64,000 nt of DNA from NCBI GenBank assembly GCA_964016885.1, contig OZ024740.1, positions 268,770,001 to 268,834,000 on the forward strand. Direction: 5' to 3'. Source of the DNA: Eledone cirrhosa (lineage: Eukaryota). Below, in pieces: positions 2,819 through 53,566 of the stretch. Below the pieces are notes generated by a model. It made no database searches, had not been told where the DNA came from, and worked only from the letters and a program-made list of their open reading frames with translations. The position numbers and the translations under genes were made by a program. The stretch's first letter is position 1. The number at the start of each line of letters is the position of its first letter.

Positions 2819-2831
2819 ATATATATATATG

Positions 2832-2881
<50 letters not shown>

Positions 2882-2899
2882 AGAGTTAAACAAGGTTCA

Positions 2900-2987
2900 A
2901 TGAATACATCTAAGAATGAGTTTTACACACATACATGTGTGTGTATGTATTTATATGTATGTGTGTGTATATGTATGTATATATGTG

Positions 2988-3020
<33 letters not shown>

Positions 3021-3386
3021 ATGTATATGTGTATGTATGTGTATATGTATATGTATGTGTTTTTGTGCGTGTGTGTATGTGTATGTATTTATTTTTATGT
3101 ATGTATGTGTATGTGCAATTAAGCATATTGCTTACCACGTGTGTTTGTTCATTTATTTGTTGTCTGTATCGCTGTCAACTTTATAATAATTTTTACATTT
3201 TTTTTATTCTTATGTGATGGTATTTTTATTATAATATTTTTTCTTATAATTAATTGAGTGTATGCGTATGTAGGTGTGCGTACATATATCTATATTTGTG
3301 TATGCGTATGTATGCGTGTGTATGTATGTGTGTGTATGTACGTGTGTATACATGTATGATTATGTGTATGTATGTATATATATATA

Positions 3387-3481
<95 letters not shown>

Positions 3482-3899
3482 TTGTGTGTATGTGTATGTA
3501 TGGATATGTTGATATATATGTGTATTTGTACGTGTATGTATATGTGTATGTATATATATATATGTGTGTGTATATGTATGTATATATGTATATATGTGTA
3601 TGTATATATGTGTGTGTATGTAATTGTGTGTGTGTGTGTGTGCACGTGCGTTTATTTTTCCTTTCCTTCTTCCTTTTCCAGCCTCACTTTCATATAGATT
3701 ATATTTTTGTATTTAAAATCCAATGTCAATAAATACACCAGGATTTTTTCATTCTGATGATTGAAAACACAATTAGTTTGCTTTCATGAAACCACTGGTA
3801 AATGAAATAATTGAATTATGTTGTTTATTACATAACTATTAAGCTCTGTAACCTACATAGAGCACTCTTTTTTCCTGGACCTTTCCGACGGAATTACTT

Positions 3900-3902
<3 letters not shown>
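2900..3902 (+). mobile_element. Microsatellite-rich PLE 3'UTR/pseudo-LTR copy ending in an HHR (homolog of 27530-28790)
   Basis: Shares unique anchors with 27530-28790 (gagttttacac; cttaccacg..ctgtatcgctgtcaa; cctttccttcttcc..ccagcctcactttcatatagatt; agagcactcttttttcctggac..ccgacggaattacttca), separated by TG/TA mosaics. Confidence 0.8.
3747..3807 (+). ncRNA. Type I hammerhead ribozyme (intact core)
   Basis: tttcatt-CTGATGA-t tgaaa..tttca t-GAAAC-cactg-GTA-aatgaaa: 7-bp stem I, stem II, ACC/GGT stem III, GUA cleavage triplet. Confidence 0.85.
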
Positions 3903-3958
<56 letters not shown>

Positions 3959-4924
3959 CACAAATCAACTAATGGTAGGTGCACAACAGAAAAGACAAAC
4001 ACTATAGATTAAAACATACACTGACATTCAATGCACTGATAACACTAATAATAAGGTTCATGTACAAAGCAACTCACATCCCCTCCAACACACACACACA
4101 CACACACACACGTGTCACAAGATTGAAACAAAGACCAGAAAATGCAGAATGAATGAGACACGTTCACCCGTTAACACACATAACTAATTATATATACAAC
4201 AGTACAATGAGGCACTAATATATACAAATAATTGTACTTAGGCATACACAACTAATTAAACATAATACGTGGTTGTACAATTACACAAAATGCACATTCT
4301 AACAAATACAAATATATAAACAATATATGCATTAACTACATCTACAATATACTAAATATGCACTTCTATACTCATATAAAATAAAAAGAGGATTATATAA
4401 GATACAAAGCTTTTTCAACTTTTGTTTACAAACAACGGAGAATTGGAAATTAGATAGTGAAAATACTGCCACCGTTGTATTTTTAGGCTAATAATTTTAA
4501 GTCATGAAAAAATGAATGACCATTGACGTACATAGGGCACGAACGCACATCTCCGGGTACTATTGCATTGCATTGTGCCACCATTACACCAATACGCCAC
4601 TCACAAAATTACATTAAATTTGAAGCTATATAATCATAGTGCATGAATACATATATATATAAGATACAAAGCTTTTTCAACTTTTGTTTACAAACAGCCG
4701 AAAATGTCAAATTATTAAATACCAGGTAACACAAACTGTTTCGTTGCCTTCATTCTACCGTCCATTTCGCATTGTCTTAGCTTTCTTAAACATAATTTTC
4801 TACATCATTTACTATACACAATGCTTCAAGCAAACTACATTCTATTGCACTCATATAAATATATCCATTCACATATATCAAATTGAACACATACTATTGA
4901 AGTTCACATTAACACTCTATACGA

Positions 4925-6454: not shown

Positions 6455-6869
6455 TTACATGAAACAAAGTTCTGTTTAAATCATTTATCTGCTTACAATT
6501 GTTTCTTCCAAACCGAGGTTAGAATTCTTCGGAGCAATTATTCAGTGATTTTTAACATACTTGACCTCCTTTTCAACACAAGAGACATATAGAAAGATAT
6601 GTATATATTGACCCACAGTGGGTTGACATCCATTATAATAATATAGCATGGTAATTTACATACAAAGAATACAGTCATATTGAAGGACAAAATCAAAGTT
6701 AAAATTAAAATTAAAATTAAAATAAAACTTTGGCAGTCTACTAAGATAAAGCAAAAGGAAAGTTTGGAGTAGCCAGTGTATGCAACAGTCACACGTTCTT
6801 CCTAACCTCGGTTTGGAAGAAACAATTGTAAGCAGATAAATGATTTAAACAGAACTTTGTTTCATGTAA
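6455..6869. repeat. 68-bp inverted repeat pair (PLE-type inverted pseudo-LTR)
   Basis: 6455-6522 is the reverse complement of 6802-6869; both arms include the 3' half of an HHR. Confidence 0.8.
6490..6536 (-). ncRNA. Hammerhead ribozyme, U4C core variant
   Basis: Minus strand: tgct-CCGAAGA-attctaacc tc ggtttggaa-GAAAC-aatt-GTA-agca; palindromic stem III ACAATTGT. Confidence 0.65.
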
Positions 6870-7054
6870 ACTCTATATAACTGCTCTGTAAAACAACTGA
6901 TGTTGTTACATTGAGCTATTTATCTTACTGGTAATAAGATAGTAATAAATTACTGTCTTTCACTATTTAGGGTATAATATATATATAACTATAAAAGGTT
7001 TTAGTATATACATAACCATAAATAGTATCCTTAATACTATATATATATATATAT

Positions 7055-10230: not shown

Positions 10231-13200
10231 GTGTAACTGTATGTGTGTATATGAGTTAGACAGTGTAGCTGTATGTGTGTATATGAGTTAGACAGTGTAA
10301 CTGTATGTGGGTATATGAGTTAGACAGTCTAGCTGTATGTGTGTATATGAGTTAGACAGTGTAACTGTATGTGTGTATATGAGTTAGACAGTCTAGCTGT
10401 ATGTATGTATATGAGTTAGACAGTCTAGCTGTATGTGTGTATATGAGATAGACATTCTAGCTGTATGTATGTATATGAGTTAGACAGTGTAACTGTATGT
10501 GTGTATATGAGTTAGACAGTCTAGCTGTATGTGTGTATATGAGATAGACAGTCTAGCTGTATGTGTGTATATGAGTTAGACAGTGTAACTGTATGTGTGT
10601 ATATGAGTTAGACAGTCTAGCTGTATGTGTGTATATGAGTTAGACAGTCTAGCTGTATGTATGTATATGAGATAGACAGTCTAGCTGTATGTGTGTATAT
10701 GAGATAGACAGTCTAGCTGTATGTATGTATACGAGATAGACAGTCTAGCTGTATGTATGTATATGAGTTAGAAAGTGTAGCTGTATGTGTGTATATGAGT
10801 TTGACAGTGAAGCTGTATGTGTGTATATGAGATAGACAGTCTAGCTGTATGTATGTATATGAGTTAGACAGTCTAGCTGTATGTGTGTATATGAGATAGA
10901 CAGTCTAGCTGTATGTATGTATATGAGTTAGACAGTCTAGCTGTATGTATGTACATGAGTTAGACAGTCTAGCTGTATGTATGTATATGAGTTAGACAGT
11001 CTAGCTGTATGTGTGTATATGAGATAGACAGTGTAGCTGTATGTATGTATATGAGATAGACAGTCTAGCTGTATGTATGTATATGAGTTAGACAGTCTAG
11101 CTGTATGTGTGTATATGAGATAGACAGTGTAGCTGTATGTATGTATATGAGTTAGACAGTCTAGCTGTATGTATGTATATGAGTTAGAAAGTCTAGCTGT
11201 ATGTATGTATATGAGTTAGACAGTGTAGCTTTATGTATGTATATGAGATAGACAGTCTAGCTGTATGTGTGTATATGAGTTAGACAGTGTAACTGTATGT
11301 GTGTATATGAGTTAGACAGTCTAGCTGTATGTGTGTATATGAGATAGACAGTCTAGCTGTATGTGTGTATATGAGTTAGACAGTGTAACTGTATGTGTGT
11401 ATATGAGTTAGACAGTCTAGCTGTATGTATGTATATGAGATAGACAGTCTAGCTGTATGTATGTATATGAGTTAGACAGTGTAGCTTTATGTATGTATAT
11501 GAGATAGACAGTCTAGCTGTATGTATGTATATGAGTTAGACAGTGTAGCTTTATGTATGTATATGAGATAGACAGTCTAGCTGTATGTGTGTATATGAGT
11601 TAGAAAGTGTAGCTGTATGTGTGTATATGAGATAGACAGTGTAGCTGTATGTGTGTATATGAGTTAGACAGTCTAGCTGTATGTATGTACATGAGTTAGA
11701 CAGTCTAGCTGTATGTGTGTATATGAGTTAGACAGTCTAGCTGTATGTGTGTATATGAGATAGACAGTGTAGCTGTATGTGTGTATATGAGATAGACAGT
11801 CTAGCTGTATGTATGTACATGAGTTAGACAGTCTAGCTGTATGTGTGTATATGAGTTAGACAGTCTAGCTGTATGTGTGTATATGAGATAGACAGTGTAG
11901 CTGTATGTGTGTATATGAGTTAGACAGTCTAGCTGTATGTATGTATATGAGTTAGACAGTCTAGCTGTATGTATGTACATGAGTTAGACAGTCTAGCTGT
12001 ATGTGTGTATATGAGTTAGACAGTCTAGCTGTATGTATGTACATGAGTTAGACAGTCTAGCTGTATGTATGTACATGAGTTAGACAGTCTAGCTGTATGT
12101 GTGTATATGAGTTAGACAGTCTAGCTGTATGTATGTATATGAGATAGACAGTCTAGCTGTATGTGTGTATATGAGTTAGACAGTCTAGCTGTGTGTATGT
12201 ATATGAGTTAGACAGTGTAGCTGTATGTATGTATATGAGATAGACAGTCTAGCTGTATGTATGTATATGAGATAGACAGTCTAGCTGTATGTATGTATAT
12301 GAGTTAGACAGTCTAGCTGTATGTATGTATATGAGATAGACAGTCTAGCTGTATGTGTGTATATGAGTTAGACAGTGTAACTGTATGTATGTATATGAGA
12401 TAGACAGTCTAGCTGTATGTATGTATATGAGATAGACAGTCTAGCTGTATGTGTGTATATGAGTTAGACAGTGTAGCTGTATGTATGTATACGAGATAGA
12501 CAGTCTAGCTGTATGTATGTATATGAGTTACACAGTCTAGCTGTATGTATGTATATGAGATAGACAGTGTAGCTGTATGTGTGTATATGAGATAGACAGT
12601 GTAGCTGTATGTATGTATATGAGATAGACAGTGTAGCTGTATGTGTGTATATGAGTTAGAAAGTGTAGCTGTATGTGTGTATATGAGATAGACAGTGTAG
12701 CTGTATGTATGTATATGAGATAGACAGTCTAGCTGTATGTATGTATATGAGTTAGACAGTGTAGCTGTATGTGTGTATATGAGTTAGACAGTCTAGCTGT
12801 ATGTGTGTATATGAGATAGACAGTCTAGCTGTATGTGTGTATATGAGTTAGACAGTCTAGCTGTATGTGTGTATATGAGTTAGACAGTCTAGCTGTATGT
12901 ATGTATATGAGATAGACAGTCTAGCTGTATGTATGTATATGAGTTAGACAGTCTAGCTGTATGTATGTATATGAGTTAGAAAGTGTAGCTGTATGTGTGT
13001 ATATGAGATAGACAGTCTAGCTGTATGTATGTATATGAGATAGACAGTCTAGCTGTATGTATGTACATGAGTTAGACAGTCTAGCTGTATGTATGTATAT
13101 GAGTTAGAAAGTGTAGCTGTATGTGTGTATATGAGATAGACAGTCTAGCTGTATGTATGTATATGAGATAGACAGTCTAGCTGTATGTATGTATATGAGA

Positions 13201-16200
13201 TAGACAGTGTAGCTGTATGTGTGTATATGAGTTAGACAGTCTAGCTGTATGTGTGTATATGAGATAGACAGTCTAGCTGTATGTGTGTATATGAGTTAGA
13301 CAGTCTAGCTGTATGTGTGTATATGAGTTAGACAGTCTAGCTGTATGTATGTACATGAGTTAGACAGTCTAGCTGTATGTATGTACATGAGTTAGACAGT
13401 CTAGCTGTATGTATGTATATGAGTTAGACAGTGTAGCTGTATGTATGTATATGAGTTAGAAAGTGTAGCTGTATGTGTGTATATGAGATAGACAGTCTAG
13501 CTGTATGTATGTATATGAGATAGACAGTCTAGCTGTATGTATGTATATGAGATAGACAATCTAGCTGTATGTGTGTATATGAGTTAGACAGTCTAGCTGT
13601 ATGTATGTATATGAGATAGACAGTCTAGCTGTATGTATGTATATGAGTTAGACAGTCTAGCTGTATGTGTGTATATGAGATAGACAGTGTAGCTGTATGT
13701 GTGTATATGAGATAGACAGTGTAGCTGTATGTATGTATATGAGTTAGACAGTGTAGCTGTATGTGTGTATATGAGTTAGAAAGTGTAGCTGTATGTATGT
13801 ATATGAGATAGACAGTCTAGCTGTATGTATGGATATGAGTTAGACAGTGTAACTGTATGTATGTATATGAGTTAGACAGTGTAGCTGTATGTGTGTATAT
13901 GAGTTAGACAGTGTAGCTGTATGTGTGTATATGAGATAGACAGTCTAGCTGTATGTATGTATATGAGTTAGACAGTGTAGCTGTATGTGTGTATATGAGA
14001 TAGACAGTGAAGCTGTATGTATGTATATGAGTTAGACAGTGTAGCTGTATGTATGTATATGAGTTAGACAGTGTAGCTGTATGTATGTATATGAGTTAGA
14101 CAGTGTAGCTGTATGTGTGTATATGAGTTAGACAGTGTAGCTGTATGTATGTATATGAGTTAGACAGTGTAGCTGTATGTGTGTATATGAGATAGACAGT
14201 CTAGCTGTATGTATGTATATGAGTTAGACAGTCTAGCTGTATGTATGTATATGAGTTAGACAGTCTAGCTGTATGTGTGTATATGAGTTAGACAGTCTAG
14301 CTGTATGTATGTATATGAGATAGACAGTCTAGCTGTATGTATGTATATGAGTTAGACAGTCTAGCTGTATGTATGTATATGAGATAGACAGTCTAGCTGT
14401 ATGTGTGTATATGAGTTAGACAGTCTAGCTGTATGTATGTATATGAGATAGACAGTCTAGCTGTATGTATGTATATGAGTTAGACAGTCTAGCTGTATGT
14501 ATGTATATGAGTTAGACAGTCTAGCTGTATGTGTGTATATGAGTTAGACAGTCTAGCTGTATGTATGTATATGAGATAGACAGTCTAGCTGTATGTATGT
14601 ATATGAGTTAGACAGTCTAGCTGTATGTATGTATATGAGATAGACAGTCTAGCTGTATGTGTGTATATGAGTTAGACAGTCTAGCTGTATGTATGTATAT
14701 GAGATAGACAGTCTAGCTGTATGTGTGTATATGAGTTAGACAGTCTAGCTGTATGTGTGTATATGAGTTAGACAGTCTAGCTGTGTGTATGTATATGAGT
14801 TAGACAGTGTAGCTGTATGTGTGTATATGAGTTAGACAGTCTAGCTGTATGTATGTATATGAGTTAGACAGTCTAGCTGTATGTGTGTATATGAGTTAGA
14901 CAGTCTAGCTGTATGTATGTATATGAGTTAGACAGTCTAGCTGTATGTGTGTATATGAGATAGACAGTGTAGCTGTGTGTATGTATATGAGTTAGACAGT
15001 GTAGCTGTATGTATGTATATGAGTTAGACAGTGTAACTGTATGTGTGTATATGAGTTAGACAGTCTAGCTGTATGTATGTATATGAGTTTGACAGTGTAA
15101 CTGTATGTATGTATATGAGTTAGACAGTGTAACTGTATGTGTGTATATGAGTTAGACAGTCTAGCTGTATGTGTGTATATGAGTTAGACAGTGTAGCTGT
15201 ATGTGTGTATATGAGTTAGACAGTCTAGCTGTATGTGTGTATATGAGTTAGACAGTCTAGCTGTATGTATGTATATGAGTTAGACAGTCTAGCTGTATGT
15301 GTGTATATGAGTTAGACAGTCTAGCTGTATGTATGTATATGAGTTAGACAGTGTAGCTGTATGTATGTATATGAGTTAGACAGTGTAACTGTATGTATGT
15401 ATATGAGTTAGACAGTGTAACTGTATGTATGTATATGAGTTAGACAGTCTAGCTGTATGTATGTATATGAGTTAGACAGTGTAACTGTATGTATGTATAT
15501 GAGTTAGACAGTCTAGCTGTATGTGTGTATATGAGATAGACAGTCTAGCTGTATGTGTGTATATGAGTTAGACAGTGTAGCTGTATGTGTGTATATGAGT
15601 TAGACAGTCTAGCTGTATGTATGTATATGAGTTAGACAGTGTAGCTGTATGTATGTATATGAGATAGACAGTGTAGCTGTATGTATGTATATGAGTTAGA
15701 CAGTCTAGCTGTATGTATGTATATGAGTTAGACAGTGTAACTGTATGTATGTATATGAGTTAGACAGTCTAGCTGTATGTGTGTATATGAGATAGACAGT
15801 CTAGCTGTATGTGTGTATATGAGTTAGACAGTGTAGCTGTATGTGTGTATATGAGTTAGACAGTCTAGCTGTATGTATGTATATGAGTTAGACAGTGTAA
15901 CTGTATGTGTGTATATGAGATAGACAGTGTAGCTGTATGTATGTATATGAGTTAGACAGTGTAGCTGTATGTGTGTATATGAGATAGACAGTGTAGCTGT
16001 ATGTGTGTATATGAGATAGACAGTCTAGCTGTATGTGTGTATATGAGATAGACAGTCTAGCTGTATGTGTGTATATGAGATAGACAGTGTAGCTGTATGT
16101 ATATATATGAGATAGACAGTCTAGCTGTGTGTATGTATATGAGTTAGACAGTGTAGCTGTATGTATGTATATGAGTTAGACAGTGTAGCTGTATGTATGT

Positions 16201-19200
16201 ATATGAGTTAGACAGTGTAACTGTATGTATGTATATGAGTTAGACAGTGTAGCTGTATGTATGTATATGAGTTAGACAGTGTAACTGTATGTATGTATAT
16301 GAGTTAGACAGTGAAGCTGTATGTATGTATATGAGTTAGACAGTGTAGCTGTATGTATGTATATGAGTTAGACAGTGTAGCTGTATGTATGTATATGAGT
16401 TAGACAGTGTAGCTGTATGTATGTATATGAGTTAGACAGTGTAGCTGTATGTATGTATATGAGTTAGACAGTGTAGCTGTATGTATGTATATGAGTTAGA
16501 CAGTGTAGCTGTATGTGTGTATATGAGTTAGACAGTCTAGCTGTATGTATGTATATGAGTTAGACAGTGTAGCTGTATGTATGTATATGAGTTAGACAGT
16601 CTAGCTGTATGTATGTATATGAGTTAGACAGTGTAACTGTATGTATGTATATGAGTTAGACAGTGTAGCTGTATGTATGTATATGAGTTACACAGTCTAG
16701 CTGTATGTGTGTATATGAGTTAGACAGTGTAGCTGTATGTATGTATATGAGTTAGACAGTGTAGCTGTATGTGTGTATATGAGTTAGACAGTGTAGCTGT
16801 ATGTATGTATATGAGTTAGACAGTGTAGCTGTATGTATGTATATGAGTTAGAAAGTGTAGCTGTATGTATGTATATGAGTTAGACAGTCTAGCTGTATGT
16901 ATGTATATGAGTTAGAAAGTGTAGCTGTATGTATGTATATGAGTTAGAAAGTGTAGCTGTATGTATGTATATGAGTTAGACAGTGTAGCTGTATGTGTGT
17001 ATATGAGTTAGACAGTGTAGCTGTATGTGTGTATATGAGTTAGAAAGTGTAGCTGTATGTATGTATATGAGTTAGACAGTGTAGCTGTATGTATGTATAT
17101 GAGTTACACAGTCTAGCTGTATGTGTGTATATGAGTTAGACAGTGTAGCTGTATGTATGTATATGAGTTAGACAGTGTAGCTGTATGTATGTATATGAGT
17201 TAGACAGTCTAGCTGTATGTATGTATATGAGTTAGAAAGTGTAGCTGTATGTATGTATATGAGTTAGACAGTGTAGCTGTATGTATGTATATGAGATAGA
17301 CAGTCTAGCTGTATGTATGTATATGAGTTAGACAGTCTAGCTGTATGTGTGTATATGAGTTAGACAGTGTAGCTGTATGTATGTATATGTGTTAGAGAGT
17401 GTAGCTGTATGTATGTATATGAGTTAGAAAGTGTAGCTGTATGTATATATATGAGATAGGCAGTCTAGCTGTATGTATGTATATGAGTTAGACAGTGTAG
17501 CTGTATGTATGTATATGAGTTAGACAGTCTAGCTGTATGTATGTATATGAGTTAGAAAGTGTAGCTGTATGTATGTATATGAGTTAGAAAGTGTAGCTGT
17601 ATGTATATATATGAGATAGGCAGTCTAGCTGTATGTATGTATATGAGTTAGACAGTGTAGCTGTATGTATGTATATGAGTTAGACAGTCTAGCTGTATGT
17701 ATGTATATGAGTTAGAAAGTGTAGCTGTATGTATGTATATGAGTTAGAAAGTGTAGCTGTATGTATGTATATGAGTTAGACAGTGTAACTGTATGTATGT
17801 ATATGAGTTAGACAGTGTAACTGTATGTATGTATATGAGTTAGACAGTGTAGCTGTATGTATGTATATGAGTTAGACAGTGTAGCTGTATGTGTGTATAT
17901 GAGTTAGACAGTGTAGCTGTATGTGTGTATATGAGTTAGACAGTCTAGCTGTATGTGTGTATATGAGTTAGACAGTCTAGCTGTATGTATGTATATGAGA
18001 TAGACAGTGTAGCTGTATGTATGTATATGAGTTAGACAGTCTAGCTGTATGTATGTATATGAGTTAGACAGTGTAGCTGTATGTGTGTATATGAGATAGA
18101 CAGTCTAGCTGTATGTATGTATATGAGTTAGACAGTCTAGCTGTATGTATGTATATGAGTTAGACAGTGTAGCTGTATGTATGTATATGAGATAGACAGT
18201 CTAGCTGTATGTATGTATATGAGTTAGACAGTCTAGCTGTATGTATGTATATGAGTTAGACAGTGTAGCTGTATGTATGTATATGAGATAGACAGTCTAG
18301 CTGTATGTATGTATATGAGTTAGACAGTCTAGCTGTATGTATGTATATGAGTTAGACAGTGTAGCTGTATGTATGTATATGAGTTAGACAGTGTAGCTGT
18401 ATGTATGTATATGAGTTAGACAGTGTAGCTGTATGTGTGTATATGAGTTAGACAGTGTAGCTGTATGTGTGTATATGAGTTAGACAGTCTAGCTGTATGT
18501 GTGTATATGAGTTAGACAGTCTAGCTGTATGTATGTATATGAGATAGACAGTGTAGCTGTATGTATGTATATGAGTTAGACAGTCTAGCTGTATGTATGT
18601 ATATGAGTTAGACAGTGTAGCTGTATGTATGTATATGAGTTAGACAGTGTAGCTGTATGTATGTATATGAGTTAGACAGTGTAGCTGTATGTATGTATAT
18701 GAGTTAGACAGTGTAGCTGTATGTATGTATATGAGTTAGACAGTGTAGCTGTATGTATGTATATGAGTTAGACAGTCTAGCTGTATGTATGTATATGAGT
18801 TAGACAGTCTAGCTGTATGTATGTATATGAGTTAGACAGTCTAGCTGTATGTATGTATATGAGTTAGACAGTGTAACTGTATGTATGTATATGAGTTAGA
18901 CAGTGTAACTGTATGTATGTATATGAGTTAGACAGTCTAGCTGTATGTATGTATATGAGATAGACAGTGTAGCTGTATGTATGTATATGAGTTAGACAGT
19001 GTAACTGTTTGTATGTATATGAGTTAGACAGTCTAGCTGTATGTATGTATATGAGTTAGACAGTCTAGCTGTATGTATGTATATGAGTTAGACAGTGTAA
19101 CTGTATGTATGTATATGAGTTAGACAGTGTAACTGTTTGTATGTATATGAGTTAGACAGTCTAGCTGTATGTATGTATATGAGTTAGACAGTCTAGCTGT

Positions 19201-19990
19201 ATGTGTGTATATGAGTTAGACAGTCTAGCTGTATGTATGTATATGAGTTAGACAGTCTAGCTGTATGTATGTATATGAGTTAGACAGTGTAGCTGTATGT
19301 ATGTATATGAGTTAGACAGTCTAGCTGTATGTATGTATATGAGTTAGACAGTCTAGCTGTATGTATGTATATGAGTTAGACAGTGTAGCTGTATGTATGT
19401 ATATGAGTTAGACAGTGAAGCTGTATGTATGTATATGAGTTACACAGTCTAGCTGTATGTATGTATATGAGATAGACAGTTTAGCTGTATGTATGTATAT
19501 GAGTTACACAGTCTAGCTGTATGTATGTATATGAGTTACACAGTCTAGCTGTATGTGTGTATATGAGTTAGACAGTTTAGCTGTATGTATGTATATGAGT
19601 TAGACAGTGTAGCTGTATGTGTGTATATGAGTTAGACAGTCTAGCTGTATGTATATATATGAGATAGGCAGTCTAGCTGTATGTATGTATATGAGATAGA
19701 CAGTTTAGCTGTATGTATGTATATGAGATAGACAGTTTAGCTGTATGTATGTATATGAGTTAGAAAGTGTAGCTGTATGTATGGATATGAGTTAGACAGT
19801 GTAGCTGTATGTATGTATATGAGTTAGACAGTTTAGCTGCATGTATGTATATGAGTTAGACAGTCTAGCTGTATGTATGTACATGAGTTAGACAGTCTTG
19901 CTGTTTGTATGTATATGAGTTAGACAGTATAGCTGTATGATTGTATATGAGTTACACAGTCTTGCTGTATGTATATATATGAGTTAGACA
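10231..19990. repeat. 32-bp satellite/minisatellite array, about 305 copies
   Basis: Unit gagWtagacagtStaRctgtatgtRtgtatat repeated for 9.76 kb. Confidence 0.98.
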
Positions 19991-21557: not shown

Positions 21558-22580
21558 AGATCAAAAGATGGTTAAAAGAGTTCCATGTATTTTATTATGC
21601 GCATTTCAAAAACAAATATCATCATGCAATAACATTTGCGTTTTCGTCAGATAAAATAGGGAGACATGATATGAAGGTTAAAACACACTTGTGAATAGTG
21701 CAATTTTAAATCAACATATGAAAAGTAGTTTTATATTGATGTGTGATATTGGGAAAACAAAATTTGAGGGGGGTGGGGTGGAAAGGATGAAAAAGAGGAG
21801 GAGATGAGAGTAAAAGTGGAGGGGGAGGAGTATAATGAGGGAGGATGAGATAGGAGGAGAGATGGGTGATAGATATCTGCATTGCTTTATTGTACTACAA
21901 TAAAACTCACCTCTCTGCCACTCATGTCGGATTTGTTTATCGCAAATTCGTGAGCTGATTTTCCGATACTCGATTATTCTATTATATTTAGCTCTAGACA
22001 TAGCTATTGACCAGTTAATTTTATTGTTCATTTTTTGTCGATTCTATTGAATGATGAATAGCTCCTGTTTATTTTAACATGTCTACCGAGCAATCTAATT
22101 CGATATGTGTTTTCCACATTACCGATAAATTTTCGCGAATATAGAGGTTATCTCCCTTGCTGGACTCCATGTGCGTTCTAGCTAAAGTTAACTTCTTTAT
22201 CCGTTGGACATAACCCGTTGATAAAGTGTTCCGGTCCATCCGCTCCCTAGAAGTCTTATATATTTTTATGTGGGCTGATAGGGGGCGGATTAAGGAATTG
22301 CAGAAACCCAAGAAGCTAGATTTACCACCTTTCTAGTGGGTCCGGGTAAGTTTTTTACATTCATATAAATTATTGATTTATTGATATTTTATTTGAGTGA
22401 CCCGAATCTTCCTGGTCGTTCTTTTTCGGCTGCATGGGTGATTTTAGGCATAATCTTTGTGTGTTGGTATTTTAACGATAGTTATAGCTCTGATTTATCT
22501 GCATTATTGAGCCCTCTGCCACTCATGTCGGATTTGTTTATCGTAAATTCGTGAGCTGATTTTCCGATACTCGATTATTC

Positions 22581-22656
<76 letters not shown>

Positions 22657-22659
<3 letters not shown>

Positions 22660-23170
22660 TATCTATATCCTAAATTAAGATAAATTAAATTAAATTAAAT
22701 GAATTTAATCTAAATCAAAATTATGGGTGTCATGCCAGAAAGACATGCGCCATATCACCCGGAAAATAAGCTCTAAGATTCTAATGAGTAGGTCCGAGCA
22801 TTTTATAATAACTAGAAATTGATTAACATATATATAAACATGAATAATCACAGGAGATAATTTTTACAAGGAAGATTAATCATATTATAAGGTTTCTATT
22901 TTTGAAGTTCTGGTCAACTTTATTTAGTTACCTACCTAGCTATGTGGGGTTACACGCTTGTAAAAATTATCTCCTGTGATTATTCATGTTTATATATATG
23001 TTAATCAATTTCTAGTTATTATAAAATGCTCGGACCTACTCGTTAGAATCTTAGAGCTTATTTTCCGGGTGATATGGCGCATGTCTTTCTGGCATGACAC
23101 CCATAATTTTGATTTAGATTAAATTCATTTAATTTAATTTAATTTATCTTAATTTTGGATATAGATATAT
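22657..23170. repeat. Fold-back inverted repeat, 214-bp arms and 86-bp spacer
   Basis: 22657-22870 is the near-perfect reverse complement of 22957-23170; spacer plus arm start recurs directly at 23450-23601. Confidence 0.9.
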
Positions 23171-23615
23171 AAATATGGCTCCTTAATTGTAGAGATAACT
23201 CTGTTGAAAGGACTCGACTGCTGTTTCTAGTTGTCGATAACCCTATTCACGCAACTGGGACGAAGCTACTATGATGTGTGTATTTCTAGTAAATACTACA
23301 CGTGGTGATAGCCAGTCGCAGATTTGAAATTGAAGTGTAAGAACGGATACCTGGAAATTTCTTCCTTGTTGAAAATCCAAATCTCCACTTCCGTGGTTTA
23401 CCACCCGATTAATTGGTGAAATATATTTCTTCAATGGAATATATACAGAGAAGATTAATCATATTATAAGGTATCTATTTTTGAAGTCCTGGTCAACTTT
23501 ATTTAGTTACCTACCTAGCTATGTGTGGTTACACACTTGTAAAAATTATCTCCTGTGATTATTCATGTTTATATATATGTTAATCAATTTCTAGTTATTA
23601 TATATACATATATAA

Positions 23616-24354: not shown

Positions 24355-24607
24355 ACTCGCACATACACTCCAACTCACTTTACTGAAGCCTTTGCAGCGG
24401 AAGTGTTTTCATTATTATCTGCGTACACATGAGGTGTTTCTGGAGCCTTGGTAACGTTGGAACTCCCAATGTGAGGGGTGAGCTTTACTTCCCGCATTGT
24501 ACTCGTACAAACGCCTCTTCTATTATCTAGTTATACAGGAACAAATGTCGGATAAGCTTTTGACCCCCCCCCCCCCCCACACACACACATATATATATAT
24601 TCTCTCG

Positions 24608-25456
24608 TTCACGATTTTATCGAGTTTATATTCATAGAAATCTTGGACTTGTCTCTTTCTTCTCACTTTCTGTTGCTTAATCCATTTTGTTTGTTCACCC
24701 TAACGTTCTCTTTATTTGCGTGTCCCAACGACTTTTTTTAGCCGTTGTTCGCACCAATCTTAGGTATATGGCCCTTAAAGCGATGAAATGCCTAGGAGGG
24801 TTGGAGGGTCACTGATGAAGGACTCACTTTTTCATATGTAACCCATTTGCAACGCCGCAGCTCCATTATTATCATATTTACACATATATTTTTTCCTCTG
24901 CTGCCACCCGTCTGTTTCGTTCTTTGTATCTTTACCCTTTCTAGCAGTCTCTCTCTCTGTTAGCCTCTTCCTCAACTTTCACTCACTCATACCCTGTCAC
25001 TAGCTCTCCTCCTCTCCTCTTTCTTCCCGCTTGACCTGTCCGATTACTTTTCACGCGCGCTCTTGGCCAAGCTGGTATGCATTTTTTTCTCTCTCTCTCT
25101 CTCGTCTGCGACTTCACAGAACTTATGTTTACCGAATTCGCAGACCAGACCCCTTCTTCTTCCCCCCGTTAGACCTGTGCGAAATTCCTTCCTTGCTCAC
25201 ATTTCAACCAGGTTTGATGGTCTTTATTCTCTCCTTCACGATTTTATCGAGTTTATATTCATAGAAATCTGGGACTTGTCTCTTTCTTCTCACTTTCTGT
25301 TGCTTAAACCATTTTGTTTGTTCACCCTAACGTTCTCTTTATTTACGTGTCCCAACGACTTTTTTTAGCCGTTGTTCGCTCCAACCTGAGGTATATGGCC
25401 CTTAAAGCGATGAAATGCCTAGGACGGTTGGAGGGTCACTGATGAAGGACTCACTT

Positions 25457-25463
<7 letters not shown>
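24608..25463 (+). repeat. Direct repeat pair (~230 bp, ~627 bp apart); related copy at ~28960-29110
   Basis: 24608-24836 matches 25235-25463 (ttcacgattttatcgag..cactgatgaaggactcactttttcatat). Confidence 0.8.
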
Positions 25464-25509
<46 letters not shown>

Positions 25510-25514
<5 letters not shown>

Positions 25515-25732
25515 GGAAAAAATGAAACGATATTTCATTTCCCAAGTGGTTTCTTAAGAGCAAAAGATTTTGCTTTCAATCCTAAGAATGAAAAAAATCC
25601 TGATCTGTTTATTGAAATTGGATTTTAAAAAAAAATGCTATCTATATGAAAGTGAGGCTGGAGAAGGAAGAAGGAAAGGAAAAATAAAATAAAACTACAC
25701 ATGCAAATACACACACAAAAACAAAAAAGCAT

Positions 25733-25803
<71 letters not shown>

Positions 25804-26938
25804 CATATACATACATATATATATATATACATATACATACACTCATACATACACACACACACATATACACACACATATATGTGTATATAAATACACACAA
25901 ACACATATATACATACGCACATAAATATCAACACATCCATACATATATACAACCAAACACACATATATACACTCATACATACACATAGAAACATAAATAT
26001 AAATACATATACATACACACATATACATACATATATATATATATATATTTTATATATATATACACATATACATATATATATATATGTGTACAAGCATACA
26101 CATACACAAACATAGCCATACACACATACATATACATACATACATGCACACAATCATACATATATACACACGTACATACATACACATACATAAATGCACT
26201 CCTCTACATATTCACACACGCAAATAAATATAAGAAAAAAAAAAAATATATATATATATATATATTTAAAAAAATGTTTGACAGCGATACAGAAGGCAGG
26301 TAACTGGACAGACACGCGTGGTAAGTAATACACACAAATGCACGTATTCATACGTACGAAATAGTAAATACATACACACACTCTCACACATAAATATACA
26401 TATACAAATACATAAACACATACATACACATACATGCACAAACACGCACACGCACACGTATACAATTATACACACACATATACACACACATATGTATATG
26501 TAATTATATACACATACATATATATATATATACATAAATATAAACATACACACACACACATATATGTATACATACACACATACATATACATACATAGCTA
26601 TACAATTATACACATACAAATACGTACATATCATAAACACGCACAACCAAATACAAACACACACAGACACATATACATATATATATACATACACATACAT
26701 ACACATACACATGTGTGTGTGTGTAAAACTCAGTGTAAGATAATTCATATGAACCTTACATATACATATATATAGTAGTAAAGTAATAAAGTAATAAGCA
26801 ACATAAGGCAATTATTCCATTCACCAGTGATTTCTTAAAAGCAAAAAATTTTTCATTCAATCTTCAGAATGAAAAAAACCTAGTCTATCTACATATACAT
26901 ACATATACACACACAAATATATATATATACATATATAT

Positions 26939-26982
<44 letters not shown>

Positions 26983-27363
26983 TAATATACATACACATAC
27001 ACATAGGTATGTGAAAGGCAAGGCAAAAAGAATATATGGGGGGGGGGGGGAACATAGGGAAAGATGAAATATAAGGGGAGGTAAGGGAGAAAAAAAATAA
27101 ATATACAAGAGTACAGAACGTAGAATCAGCAAAATAAAAACCGTAGCAGAAGTAAAGGGCAGGAAAGGAGTTCAAGGCGGTTGATTTATCATAGGAGTGT
27201 CAATCCAGTTACAGATCAGATGCGATTTCAGATGAGGACAGCATCTGAAGATCTCAGTCTTTGAGTTACGGCAAGCGGAAGTGGCTCTCAAATTTAGCAA
27301 AATCCTATACTTTTCTGTGGTACACAAAGAACAATTCTTTGTGTCCCTTTGGATAAGATATTT
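25510..27363 (-). mobile_element. 5'-truncated PLE: endonuclease C-terminus plus microsatellite-rich 3'UTR with two degenerate HHRs
   Basis: 27363-27172 translates to KYLIQRDTKNCSLCTTEKYRILLNLRATSACRNSKTEIFRCCPHLKSHLICNWIDTPMINQPP*, matching the tail at 39440-39646; HHR remnants at 26815-26874 and 25533-25593. Confidence 0.85.
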
Positions 27364-27386
27364 AATATGTAGATAGACCAGGTTTT

Positions 27387-27446
27387 TTTCATTCTGAAGA
27401 TTGAAGGAAAAGGTTTTTGCTTTTAAGAAACCACTGGTGAATGGAA
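27387..27446 (+). ncRNA. Hammerhead motif with non-cleavable GUG triplet
   Basis: tttcatt-CTGAAGA-stem II-GAAAC-cactg-GTG-aatggaa. Confidence 0.6.
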
Positions 27447-28627
27447 TAATTGCCTTATGTTGCTTATTACTTTATTACTTTACTACTATATATATGTATA
27501 TGTAAGGTTCATATGAATTATCTTACACTGAGTTTTACACACACACACAAACATGTGTATGTGTATGTATGTGTATGTATATATATATATATATATGTAT
27601 GTGTCTGTGTGTGTGTTTGTATTTGGTTGTGCGTGTTTATGATATGTACGTATTTGTATGTGTATAATTGTATAGCTATGTATGTATATGTATGTATGTA
27701 TACATATATGTGTGTGTGTGTATGTTTATATTTATGTATATATATATATATATATATGTATGTGTATATAATTACATATACATATGTGTGTGTATATGTG
27801 TGTGTATAATTTTATACGTGTGCGTGTGCGTGTTTGTGCATGTATGTGTATGTATGTGTTTATGTATTTGTATATGTATATTTATGTGTGAGAGTGTGTG
27901 TATGTATTTACTATTTCGTACGTATGAATACGTGCATTTGTGTGTATTACTTACCACGCGTGTCTGTCCAGGTACCTGCCTTCTGTATCGCTGTCAAACA
28001 TTTTTTTAAATATATATATATATATATATATTTTTTTTCTCATATTTATTTGCGTGTGTGAATATGTAGAGAAGTGCATTTATGTATGTGTATGTATGTA
28101 CGTGTGTATATATGTATGATTGTGTGCATGTATGTATGTATGTATATGTATGTGTGTATGGCTATGTTTGTGTATGTGTATGCTTGTACACATATATATA
28201 TATATATATGTATATGTGTATATATATGTATATATGTATGTATATGTGTGTATGTATATGTATTTATATTTATGTTTCTATGTGTATGTATGTGTGTATA
28301 TATGTGTGTGTGGTTGTATATATGTATGTGTATGTATGGATGTGTTGATATTTATGTGCGTATGTATATATGTGTTTGTGTGTATTTATATACACATATA
28401 TGTGTGTATATATGTGTGTGTGTGTATGTATGAGTGTATGTATATGTATATATATATGTATGTATATATATATGTGTGTGTGTATGTATGCTTTTGTGTT
28501 TTTGTGTGTGTATTTGCATGTGTAGTTTTATTTTATTTTTCCTTTCCTTCTTCCTTCTCCAGCCTCACTTTCATATAGATTGCATTTTTGTTTTTAAAAT
28601 CCAAATTCAATAAACAGACCAGGATTT

Positions 28628-28687
28628 TTTCATTCTGAGGATTGAAAGCAAAATCTTTTGCTTTTAAGAAACCACTGGTAAATGGAA
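28628..28687 (+). ncRNA. Type I hammerhead ribozyme (intact core)
   Basis: tttcatt-CTGAGGA-ttgaaagcaaaa tc ttttgcttttaa-GAAAC-cactg-GTA-aatggaa; long stem II. Confidence 0.85.
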
Positions 28688-30425
28688 TAATTGCCTTATG
28701 TTGTTTATTACATAACTATTAAGCTCTGTTACCTACATAGAGCACTCTTTTTTCCTGGACTTTTCCGACGGAATTACTTCATTTATATATATATATATAT
28801 GCAAAAAGTAAACAGAAATAAGAATATATGTCGCACGGTCTGTTGTCTCTCGCTCATGAAATCCACACAGCTAAAGCTGATCGGACTCCCATGTGCTTGT
28901 TTTTTCCTATCTTTGCGTTGCTATCCTTCTATGTTTGTTTACTTGTCTCGCTCGCTTTACGCGATTTACTTGTCCCAATAGCTTTGTTTAGCTATTGCTC
29001 GCACCAACTGGAGGTATATGATTTTTAAAGCGATGAAATACCAATGAAGGTTGGAAAATCACTGATGAAGGACTATTTTTATCATATGTAACCCATGTGC
29101 AACCATGCAGTATTCATTCTTCTCATGTTTTATATATATTTATATATATGCACTGATATACTCTCTTCTAGGAAAAATATTTTTCTTCATGTTTGGCCCA
29201 GAAAATTAATGTACGTAACTCTCTTCGTCCATGCACACAAACTTCCTCATACATACATTTGTACACATCCATATACACATGCACACCTGATTAAACTATA
29301 CGTGAAAATATACCCCACGCAGAGAAATATTTGTACTTTAATGCTGTCAAGCAACGCCGCAGGAGTTCAGCACGAACATAAATATATAGAAAATTAATAT
29401 ATTCTACGCCGATTTAAAGGTACATGGTTAAATTTCAACTCAGATTCCTATGAATATGTTCGTAATTTTGTAAGAAAATTACAATATTTGGTTAGTCTCT
29501 GATCATAGCACATGGAGGGTGTCAATTAAATTGTAGCCTGAAACGAATCCATTAATATTAGATAGCGAAAACATTAATTCACTTGCCTCTAACTAAAAGA
29601 AATACTTGCAAAATTTTGTTGTTCGATAGAAAATATACACAAAGTTACTCGCAGGAATAAAACATAAAGCATTAAAATGTTGGTTTCAAATCAGCGTATA
29701 AATTAACGTATAAATTAACGTCAACACGTAAATGTAAATATGTGCCAGACGGTTGAATTCATCCGGTGTATTGGACCAGCAGCGAGAAAGTACAGCTTCC
29801 CTTTCTATGATTAGAGGACTTAACTAATTTCGCCGTTTCTGTTTCCTTAGTTGTAGATATGTGCTATGTGAAGGTACAACTCATCAATTAAAGCTACAGA
29901 AACGTTGTATGATTGATGTTTTACACCTGCATATTGCCAAGCAGTTAAATGTATTGTAAGTGACCACATCCATAAAGTGTCACTACACTGTACAAAAGTA
30001 CGACAGTTGATATAGAAGCATCGATATACTAACGTATTCAAGAAGATTATCTCGATATCTAACCTCATACCATGATTTACTTGGTCACTTGATCTGCAGG
30101 AAATAACAGTTAAATAACACTCCACCATCATAAAATGAAATGGCATGGCAAGGATGCATTGCTCATACATTTATTCAATTAAGACTTATCCGGTTCTAAA
30201 AATCAGCCAAATCAGCTTTGGTTCAGTTACATGCCGTTGAATTAGTATGGTTAACTGGGTGTTTCTTTAAATCTCAGTGTTGATTTAAAGTCCGTATATT
30301 TACAAGAAAAAATCAAAATAGGAGTAAGAGAATCGAAACAAAATTGAAGTTCCTTATGTCACTCAAGTCTATCTAATTCTTTATTCTTTTATAATTCTTA
30401 ATTCTTTTATTATTACCTCCTGAAT

Positions 30426-38417: not shown

Positions 38418-38852
38418 CAATATTCAATAATATACAATAATATATATATATATATCATAAATCATGTCTTTAGAATCATCAGATATTAAAATATATACTA
38501 TTTCCTCTTCTAATTAGCATAATTAACGATATACAAAATCAAATCTAGCAAGCTTTAAGAATAAATTTTCTTATGGGGAAATCTCCGACAAACAATCGAC
38601 CGTAGCCTCTTCGCGGCAGCCCCGTTCCATTATTTATCGAACATTTCGACAGCATGCAGACTTCGACCAAATATACCATCAACCACACACAATTAGTAGT
38701 AAAATTAAACTTAGAAGAAATGCGCACATACCGTAATTATATCCCTACCATGGTTTCTTCCTTATTTAGGACATCCAAATAATATGGATTTCCAGAGTTA
38801 GTTTCATCAGGGGATAAACTCAAAATCAGACATTTAGTTTTTCAATCCGATC

Positions 38853-40952
38853 GTGCCAAATTTAGATTCAAAAATGGCTAAAAATCAAAATAGCGGATTT
38901 AGCGAACCGATTAAGTACATACCCAACAATACTAACTCTTTTAAACATAATAATAGGAAAAGAAAAAATAATCTGGTTCACACCCCCTACTCTCTAGCAG
39001 TTAAAACTAATGTAGGCAAAACATTCCTAGAGCTCTTAGATAAACATTTCCCTAGAACACATAGATACTATAAGATCTTCAATAGAAACTGTGTCAATAT
39101 TAGCTACTCCTGCGGTCCCCCTATTAAATTTTATATCATCAATAAGAAATCACCCAGAGAACATCAAAATTGCTCCTGTAGAGTCAAAAGTGAATGCCCA
39201 TTACAAGGTAAATGCAACACCAAAGCCATTGTATATGCGGCTAAAATGACAACCATCAGCAACAACCAGCCATCCACCAGCGAACGATATGTTGGTATGA
39301 CACAAGACAAATTCAAAACGCGTTATTTCTCACATGTCGCATCTTTCCGACATCCAGAAAAAAGATTCACACAGCTCTGGCTAGCAGAATATGGGATTTG
39401 AAAGACCAATGTATCCAATATAAATTGGATTAGTCAATTTTGAACCAATCTAAAGAATATGCAAGAGGAACAAGAAGATGCACACTCTGCATAACTGAAA
39501 AATATTGGATTTTACAGAACCTTAAATCACCAAAAACCTGCCTAAATACAAAAACAGAAATTTTCACCAGTTGCCGACACATGAAATCACACTTGCTTTC
39601 CAGCTCATATAAACTTAACTCGCTTTCAGATACTTATCCTCCATAAACTCTTATTCTTCACTTTCCTTAAATTATCATCTTTACAGACTTCTCTTCCAGA
39701 TTTACTTTCATTTTTAACTTTATTTTTAATTTTATTTTTATTTTTACTTCACATCCACCAGTAACCCCCATCCTACTTTTCGATTCACTTACCTAATATC
39801 TCCACATTCCACATTTTACTTCCCCAGTTTCTTTCACTACCTGATATTACATGTCACTTGCGTTTTCCACTCCAGATATATTCTGTTGTTTCGGAGCCGA
39901 TTTTATATTTGTACTCATTTATTCATACGGCTGGTTTATAATCTATATCTATGTGTGTGAGTGTGCTTATGTGTGTATACGTTCTGTATACGTATACGAA
40001 CGCCTCCGTATGTGTGCGTGCGTACGTATATATATGTGTGTGTATGTGTGTTTTTATATCTATGTTTTTTTTATATCTATATTTTTTACATACTTATTTA
40101 TACGTGTGTGTGTATGCGGGTGAATGTATGTGTATGTGTATGTATATGTGTGTATATGTATGTGTAAGTATGGGTGTGTATGTATATATGTATATATATA
40201 TATAGTCGCGTACGTACGTGTGATTAGATATACATGTGGCGATATATATATACCTGCCTCGTGTGTATGTATGTACGCATGCATGCGCTTTTGTCTGTAC
40301 GTATTTGTGTGTATAAATATTTTATATATATATATGTACGTGCGTACCTATGTTTATTTTCTTTTCTCTAGTGTTAATTGATTACTTTCTCTTTGATTTA
40401 AAAAAATGTTTCATTATCATATATTGTTTCATTTTTATACATATATCGAGAATGACACTTCTTTTTACTATTACACTCCCCTCTTTATCTTCCGAATATA
40501 AGTGACCACATGTGTGTGTTTATACGCGTGCTTTCATACTCGTATGTGTATTTAATACATGTATCTGGATGCGTGTTAACTATATTATCATACAATTTCT
40601 TTTTCAACTCTATATTATATACGTATTTGTGGTCACATATACACAAATATACTTGCCCTCATATATGTACTTACGCACACATTTTCACCATACACATGCA
40701 TTTGTACATTCACACATATGTACATTTGTGAGTGTATATACATACATATACACATACCCTAACTACATTTCCTTATTTTTTTATACATCTCTTGCATTAC
40801 TTTTATTTATATATTTTTATATATTCTTGAGGAGACTTTTCAAATATTTCACTATGTTTTAAATTGCCTTGTCCGACGAACGAATGAGGACGTTTTTCGT
40901 ATTCGTCTTATTCGGGAAACTTCTGGTAATGAGGTAATTATATTGTATTGTT

Positions 40953-52705: not shown

Positions 52706-52801
52706 ATATATATATATTATTTGGAAATGTATGTATGGATGCATGTATGTATATAAGATGTATATATATACACATATACATATATATATATAGAGAATTA
52801 T

Positions 52802-53566
52802 ATATTGCCACACTTGGGGAGGGTCCTATTTGCGTAATATTGCCAGAATTAATAACAGAACACACTCACTGTTTGGTTGGTTTTCGCTTCTCGCTGTCTT
52901 TTATTATATCTGCGATCTAACTTACTCGGTCCTCAATGTTGCCATTGACTGACCGGCGGTCAAAAATAATACAGATACAATATAGACACAAACACATATA
53001 TATATATATAGTTTACATAATTTACATAAATCTTTCGTTGCACATCTGCAACATCGTCAGTGGTGTTATATTCATTGTTCCTCCTGTTGTGTTGTATGTC
53101 TACGCCATTTTTTAAAAAATGGCGTAGACATACAACACAACAGGAGGAACAATGAATATAACACCACTGACGATGTTGCAGATGTGCAACGAAAGATTTA
53201 TGTAAATTATGTAAACTATATATATATATATGTTGTATGTCTACGCCATTTTTTAAAAAATGGCGTAGACATACAACACAACAGGAGGAACAATGAATAT
53301 AACACCACTGACGATGTTGCAGATGTGCAACGAAAGATTTATGTAAATTATGTAAACTATATATATATATATGTGTTTGTGTCTATATTGTATCTGTATT
53401 ATTTTTGACCGCCGGTCAGTCAATGGCAACATTGAGGACCGAGTAAGTTAGATCGCAGATATAATAAAAGACAGCGAGAAGCGAAAACCAACCAAACAGT
53501 GAGTGTGTTCTGTTATTAATTCTGGCAATATTACGCAAATATGACCCTCCCCAAGTGTGGCAATAT
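52802..53566. repeat. Large near-perfect palindrome with a 141-bp internal tandem duplication and three HHR-like motifs
   Basis: Spacerless centres at 53113/53114 and 53254/53255; outer arms pair 52802 with 53566; CTGACGA-t gttgca gatg tgcaac-GAAAG-at-TTA at 53167(+), 53308(+) and 53060(-). Confidence 0.9.

Follow-up and report, generated by a model that had tools for sequence, protein, structure and literature searches.

The 64,000-nucleotide stretch of the Eledone cirrhosa genome analysed here (the window; contig OZ024740.1 of assembly GCA_964016885.1, positions 268,770,001 to 268,834,000, forward strand) contains a 1.24 kb unit with a hammerhead ribozyme motif at each end, present as an inverted pair. 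Judged from its sequence, the locus is one insertion of a young and abundant Penelope-like element (PLE), composed of a 5'-truncated sense copy and an inverted copy, and the 1.24 kb unit corresponds to the 3' untranslated region (UTR) of this PLE family. The best explanation, to which we give a probability of about 0.8, combines such an insertion and such a 3' UTR unit with two further events: insertion of the element into itself, which would have created the inner of the two hammerheads, and takeover of the family by copies whose inner cleavage triplet is GUG. The labels A, A', B, u1, u2, a2, S and T used below were coined in this analysis; numbers with the prefix L designate loci fetched from the same genome, and P0001 is the intact open reading frame (ORF) of the family, from L062.

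The inverted pair and its element family

A descriptor scan of the window located hammerhead cores at 27394 (plus strand, GUG), 28635 (plus strand, GUA) and 26867 (minus strand, GUG). The two plus-strand cores lie 1241 nt apart, as had been noticed in an original prediction made from the letters of the window, which had also described the upstream GUG and a mirrored unit on the opposite strand. This minus-strand arm extends from 26896 to about 25531 and is identical to the plus arm at 1265 of 1291 aligned columns (98%). One variant is common to both arms and occurs in none of the other fetched loci, as would fit with a single event of insertion. Purine-pyrimidine alternating runs of at least 8 nt make up 62% of the unit.

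The spacer between the arms contains, at 27352-27172 on the minus strand, the last 59 residues and the stop codon of a GIY-YIG endonuclease, 57 of the 59 residues being identical to P0001. The endonuclease C-terminus predicted in this spacer is thus present, although it starts at 27352 and not at 27363. Position 27352 is the 5' truncation point of the sense copy, and all 39 other matches to the endonuclease-piece query begin at query base 12 or 13. The adjoining 15-nt junction patch (27353-27367, plus strand) matches the family ORF further upstream, exactly so in five of six full-length loci tested, and probably records a template jump. On the minus strand the sense copy continues with the proximal 3' UTR and a first TA/TG tract (26897-27171), which in copies of the family come after the endonuclease in this same order, then with the inner hammerhead (26815-26874 in the descriptor scan; GUG, with one additional change in stem III) and the microsatellite body (25607-26780). 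Its downstream hammerhead (25512-25606) is degenerate, with an altered core, a GGG triplet and a foreign sequence in place of its end, and is followed by (TA)n at 25461-25511. With a GUG inner hammerhead and a degenerate downstream one, this arm has no predicted cleavable site.

The inverted arm, on the plus strand, begins with the inner type I hammerhead (27387-27446), which has an intact core and is predicted to be uncleavable, its triplet at 27437-27439 being GUG. A decayed copy of the short end of the family follows, with a short TA tract (27447-27499); this short end is unchanged in older copies. Then come anchor a2 (27500-27545), which resembles the reversed tail end of a further hammerhead-bearing repeat family (L158-L160), a TA/TG/CA mosaic body (27546-28524) including a unique anchor at 27910-28005, and a unique lead-in (28525-28627) to the terminal hammerhead. 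The latter (28628-28687) is of type I, with a GUA triplet and a predicted cut after 28680. The arm closes with the short (S) end of the family (28688-28718), where many copies stop and run into (TA)n, and with an optional tail of about 65 nt (28719-28784; T end), which in full-length copies is the start of the 5' UTR and here is followed by (TA)n. By these assignments the unit in the window would have one cleavable site at most.

A short motif in this tail, at 28740-28747, is found again in tails or 5' UTRs of various families (for instance in L158, in L159 and in L033 near 2850) and may be a protein-binding or promoter signal. Another repeat lies on both sides of the inverted pair in the same orientation (24600-24860, 25227-25467 and 28964-29103; 96% and 79% alike). 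It forms an inverted pair of its own in L049, near 6760-6870, and was not recognised as a hammerhead.

A first look at the 3.0-Gb genome yielded 714 candidates for the 3' end and 1,554 for the endonuclease piece, the best 40 at 97-100% identity. Fifty-eight loci of ten kb were fetched, 38 around 3'-end matches and 20 around endonuclease matches. Full-length copies have the order truncated body, terminal hammerhead, tail, 5' UTR, ORF, UTR, inner hammerhead, body, terminal hammerhead. In L062 the ORF is intact over 711 amino acids, a single frame with a reverse transcriptase (YRDD) and, at its C-terminus, an endonuclease of the GIY-YIG type (VYE...RYVG). P0001 carries RWK, DKT, a CxCX5C linker, CxxC and CxH at 37, 114, 556, 659 and 690, all of them marks of the Hydra clade of PLEs (PMC8557442; this and the papers cited below stand for the portions of their text that were compared). 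By its motifs the element is therefore assigned to the Hydra type. The Naiad clade was ruled out, the endonuclease being C-terminal and a hammerhead present. Pfam gave nothing for the 63-amino-acid endonuclease fragment of the window and, for the related ORF of family B, a GIY-YIG match at E 0.002, short of the cut-off.

The family shows further traits of endonuclease-bearing (EN+) PLEs, namely partial tandems, an inverted 5'-truncated copy, and a tail at one end only. Of the 38 loci fetched around 3'-end matches, 17 end before reaching the middle anchor and 19 extend as far as the inner hammerhead, which reads as the usual 5'-truncation gradient of the family. Hammerhead pairs were found 47 times in the 58 loci, with a median spacing of 1303 nt (range 646-4795), so that the two-hammerhead spacing is not peculiar to the window. 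The PLE 3' tail and the inverted pair at a 5' truncation, both proposed originally, are borne out by this family structure. The distance between terminal hammerheads is 3,969 nt in L066 and 4,678 nt in L062, above the 3 kb below which Hydra-clade elements typically fall. Insertion at (TA)n, as in the Hydra clade, was seen in that 78 of 89 ends adjoin a microsatellite (25 of the 26 short ends and 53 of the 63 with a tail), while four run on into a 5' UTR. Outward-facing pairs combined one short and one tailed end in 23 of 25 cases under a strict rule, 38 of the 58 loci having been selected for the tailed end, and in 21 of 26 under a looser one. The two end types likely mark two internal start sites of reverse transcription; two such starts were shown in vitro for a PLE of the anole (PMC11167929).

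Inner and terminal hammerheads

Hammerhead numbering and core letters are used here as established. An Rfam scan gave no hammerhead match at E<=1, only noise of miRNA models on the microsatellites, and single-strand folding was no better than that of shuffled sequences (z of -1.2 and -0.6). The motifs were called hammerheads because of core conservation, stems and position at the PLE 3' end. All 11 invariant core letters are intact in 114 of 120 terminal copies from the fetched loci, and a type I hammerhead in the terminal repeat, as predicted here, is a feature of EN+ PLEs. Stem III of the terminal hammerhead has 3 bp and is embedded in a near-palindrome, as in the dimer type that has been described in animal PLEs (PMC4209133, PMC6466107). 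Hammerheads of other families occur in the window at 21596-21650 (minus strand) and 52216 (plus strand), and at least five further types ending in (TA)n were seen within the fetched loci.

Exact patterns found 292 inner-type and 3,870 terminal-type hammerheads genome-wide. Among the first 100 listed of the 292, counted by eye, the triplet was GUG in 91, GUA in seven and GUC in two; the first 100 listed of the 3,870, counted in the same way, were all GUA, and GUA was present in 119 of the 120 terminal copies of the fetched loci. A second pattern recovered 256 GUG copies against 16 non-G matches, of which only three were inner copies, the remaining 13 being terminal hammerheads with a point change. 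Since GUG is reported not to be cleaved by hammerheads (PMC4191386), the inner hammerhead is predicted to be disarmed family-wide, GUG being a trait of the family and not of this copy alone. The caution attached to the original prediction, that the upstream GUG might allow a single cut, applies to the whole family.

The two inner hammerheads with GUC are in L105 (also fetched as L154) and on contig C1 at 387,970,063. In L105 the core of the GUC copy is intact and a terminal GUA lies downstream, making it a candidate for a young copy that cuts twice.

Origin of the inner hammerhead

A sister subfamily, A', has an endonuclease region 86% alike to that of the main family. Its UTR passes through u1, u2, (TA)n and a2 to a single hammerhead, and no inner one is present. 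L104, a non-G pattern match, is an intermediate: its inner hammerhead has GUA and is followed by the short end in unchanged form, (TA)n and a2. In the 30 loci that best resemble L104 the inner site is GUA in 18 and GUG in 12, and 11 of the 30 have two intact GUA hammerheads in series, 1.1-1.3 kb apart. Two loci, L120 and L133, combine the A' anchors with an inner GUA hammerhead. L120 keeps u1 and u2 ahead of it, and its arrangement reads as that of A' with an insertion at (TA)n. The divergence of inner GUA copies is 5.1% from the terminal hammerhead of their own element, roughly the spread within groups, and 11.5% from that of A', which places the duplication after the A' split. In a tree built on the last 420 nt of the ORF alone (62 rows), 37 GUG rows were grouped apart from the GUA rows (support 94/93), and one further GUG locus fell among the latter.

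The following history would account for these observations. The family targets (TA)n and yet has (TA)n in its own UTR, so that a master copy may itself have become a target; a 5'-truncated piece of about 105 nt from the element's own 3' end would then have landed in the (TA)n of the UTR and become the inner hammerhead. The ends of other families were likely captured in the UTR by the same route. For anchor u1 the match is with the 3' half of a hammerhead-like end from another family; a2 has the likeness described above. Read-through would have taken the added sequences along. At the inner site GUA changed to GUG, probably twice, and one GUG lineage would have made the young copies. This lineage likely succeeded because an internal cut would part the ORF from the end at which reverse transcription starts. 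The unit likely moves only within the element RNA, its inner hammerhead being predicted to be uncleavable.

Several points weigh against this account. The loci were picked by similarity to chosen queries, and the proportions are not genome-wide. The ORF tree has a midpoint root, its inner branches are weakly supported (nine of the 58 are starred), and it contains duplicate loci, 10 unlabelled rows and one mislabelled row (L132). Self-insertion has not been fully told apart from a tandem insertion that later underwent deletion, and no origin was found for the anchor at 27910-28005. Selection against internal cutting is something that we infer: the two-GUA subfamily transposed whole, with both hammerheads intact in 11 of 30 loci, and hammerhead cleavage was dispensable in vitro for the anole PLE (PMC11167929), so that drift in successive masters could have fixed GUG.

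Drift of this kind is the core of the alternative that survives best, in which structure and history are the same and the inner hammerhead is a neutral passenger, its GUG fixed by chance in successive masters with no effect. Few masters and few changes would be needed, two-GUA copies did transpose intact, and the dispensability of cleavage in another PLE (PMC11167929) agrees with it. The terminal GUA was kept in 119 of 120 copies, however, while the equivalent inner site changed, probably twice, and we regard a pure passenger as rather unlikely.

A second alternative would give the inner copy a function as catalyst only: its core would cut the terminal GUA in cis through a double-hammerhead fold, its own GUG staying uncut. 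The hammerheads of metazoan PLEs are reported to need dimers (PMC4209133), and if this reading were true the requirement would be satisfied within one RNA. In modelling, an imposed double fold of the inner and terminal copies reached -23.4 kcal/mol, compared with -14.4 for two single folds; these energies come from imposed structures, and the young inner copy has an eroded stem II and misfolds when free to fold. Among 69 GUG copies no variant in the 11 invariant core letters or stem I was common to three or more loci, and the free core position 7 changed twice, a pattern in favour of this reading. The corresponding shared-versus-private test was not significant for the GUG copies (p=0.14), reaching p=0.005 only when GUA-stage copies were added, and several flank variants next to a poly-T run may be alignment artefacts. 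Moreover, A' and the unrelated family B each multiplied with one hammerhead. A helper role is a lead, though an improbable one.

The original prediction had gone further and proposed a retrozyme, in which the two hammerheads cut the unit out of an RNA that is circularised and re-inserted by the PLE; we consider this very unlikely. Animal retrozymes do derive from PLE terminal repeats (bioRxiv 10.64898/2026.07.22.740005), and copies with two GUA hammerheads exist. In addition, pairs of terminal GUA hammerheads were seen at the 3' ends of L066 (456 nt apart) and L063 (500 nt), and in L036 at a spacing of 164 nt. In the window, the unit does not have a complete and cleavable hammerhead at each of its ends, the inner one being GUG in both arms, and the same holds family-wide; two cleavable hammerheads are predicted in the 11 older loci. 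A re-inserted circle should show, one after another, the terminal lead-in with its hammerhead, the short end, (TA)n and a2. This junction pattern, searched with two gap ranges, gave four and one matches in the genome, and none of the five was a re-inserted circle, against 3,870 terminal hammerheads and at a sensitivity of about 0.6 (of known copies, one half of the pattern recovered 64 of 88 and the other 100 of 120). Four of the matches, L157-L160, continue into other repeats, and the fifth, L161, is without a hammerhead. The inner hammerhead joined to the tail gave no match, and an apparent junction of the terminal hammerhead with inner-type downstream sequence was a BLAST artefact of the short end and (TA)n.

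The proposed check for multimers without an ORF turned up one array, an ORF-less series of eight A' units on contig C28 (45,834,900-45,856,500; L147-L150). Its units are of a different and longer kind than the expected monomer (2.0-4.2 kb) and contain a foreign satellite of about 0.54 kb in varying number, a broken stem I and a tailed junction. This junction was found there only, though the search caught just two of its eight known junctions. The array reads as a local DNA duplication. A retrozyme could apply only to the older two-GUA subfamily, or to terminal hammerheads in small tandems. Excision of an RNA from the former is conceivable, no trace of it having been detected, while a free RNA circle from a family with a mutated inner motif is unlikely. 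The spread of compound microsatellites that the circle was meant to explain stands in part: the family does carry microsatellites, likely by ordinary PLE retrotransposition.

The window contains further elements. Positions 2878-3902 (plus strand) are a 5'-truncated A' copy with a core at 3754 and a T end. It had been listed at 2900-3902 as a diverged copy of the unit; the copy is there, but it has one hammerhead and belongs to the sister subfamily without an inner one. It forms one arm of a separate inverted pair, whose partner arm is in L049 at about 7730-6900. Between these A' arms sits a near-complete PLE of family B (window 166-2810, minus strand, and L049 8200-10000), with one frameshift, an AT-rich 3' UTR of about 2 kb and its own hammerhead; a copy 92-95% identical is present in L069. 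That family B (ORF 2810-166) might share the tail of the main family was ruled out by this UTR and hammerhead and by its position between A' arms. Decayed remains of the linker and endonuclease from a related family, with 58% identity to P0001, lie at 38850-39450 (plus strand), and a satellite of 32 bp in about 305 copies (94% match) at 10237-19990. Near-perfect inverted repeats at 52794-53574 (344 nt at 99%) and 22651-23176 (220 nt at 98%) are possibly further PLE inverted pairs.

Comparison with known systems

Hydra-clade PLEs (Craig et al. 2021, PMC8557442) share with the present family the RWK, DKT, CxCX5C, CxxC and CxH motifs, the 3'-end hammerhead, insertion at (TA)n, partial tandems, the inverted 5' copy and the optional tail. 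They are generally shorter than 3 kb, whereas the units here are 4.0-4.7 kb (L066, L062), and the tail described for PLEs is 30-40 bp as compared with about 65 nt. The two hammerheads per unit, the inner one with GUG, also set the family apart. Poseidon PAc of Anolis (PMC11167929) has two end types set by an optional tail and a hammerhead upstream of the ends; it belongs to another clade, and its single hammerhead overlaps the start of the ORF.

Animal non-LTR (long terminal repeat) retrozymes (PMC7229834; bioRxiv 10.64898/2026.07.22.740005) share type I hammerheads, PLE origin and low GC content. They are tandem repeats, 51-972 bp in size, every unit of which bears a hammerhead, and their RNAs measure about 170-400 nt, whereas the unit described here is linked to an ORF or 5'-truncated, measures 1.2 kb and has one predicted cleavable site, with no circle junction found. 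Two features that define a retrozyme, a cleavable hammerhead at each end and ORF-less multimers of the monomer, were not observed for it.

Two further parallels concern the captured sequence. In Pen1_Av of Adineta vaga (PMC3846280), captured DNA of 0.9-1.5 kb separates the ORF from the 3' terminal repeat. Pen1 spacers vary among copies, whereas here one captured tail with a second hammerhead is fixed across hundreds. The microsatellite-bearing Penelope elements that penaeid shrimp harbour (PMC7878876) take simple repeats along when they move, and these repeats vary in length once inserted; the text compared does not mention ribozyme or tail history. Capture of DNA in the 3' region of a PLE (PMC3846280) and carriage of microsatellites by Penelope (PMC7878876) are thus already known. 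A literature search whose scope lay outside most subscription journals, Repbase and bioRxiv supplements found no PLE with a duplicated, GUG-inactivated inner hammerhead, and none of the published work so reached described an inner hammerhead that is duplicated, disarmed and fixed and whose history can be traced. The role of PLE hammerheads in vivo is unsettled (PMC8557442, PMC11167929), and the present genome offers a natural comparison of copies with one hammerhead, with two GUA hammerheads and with GUG plus GUA. That the terminal GUA was kept and the inner one lost suggests that cleavage is of importance at the end, and disadvantageous or of no use in the interior. The self-insertion history that we favour points to a likely route by which microsatellite-targeting elements build and spread microsatellite-rich tails.

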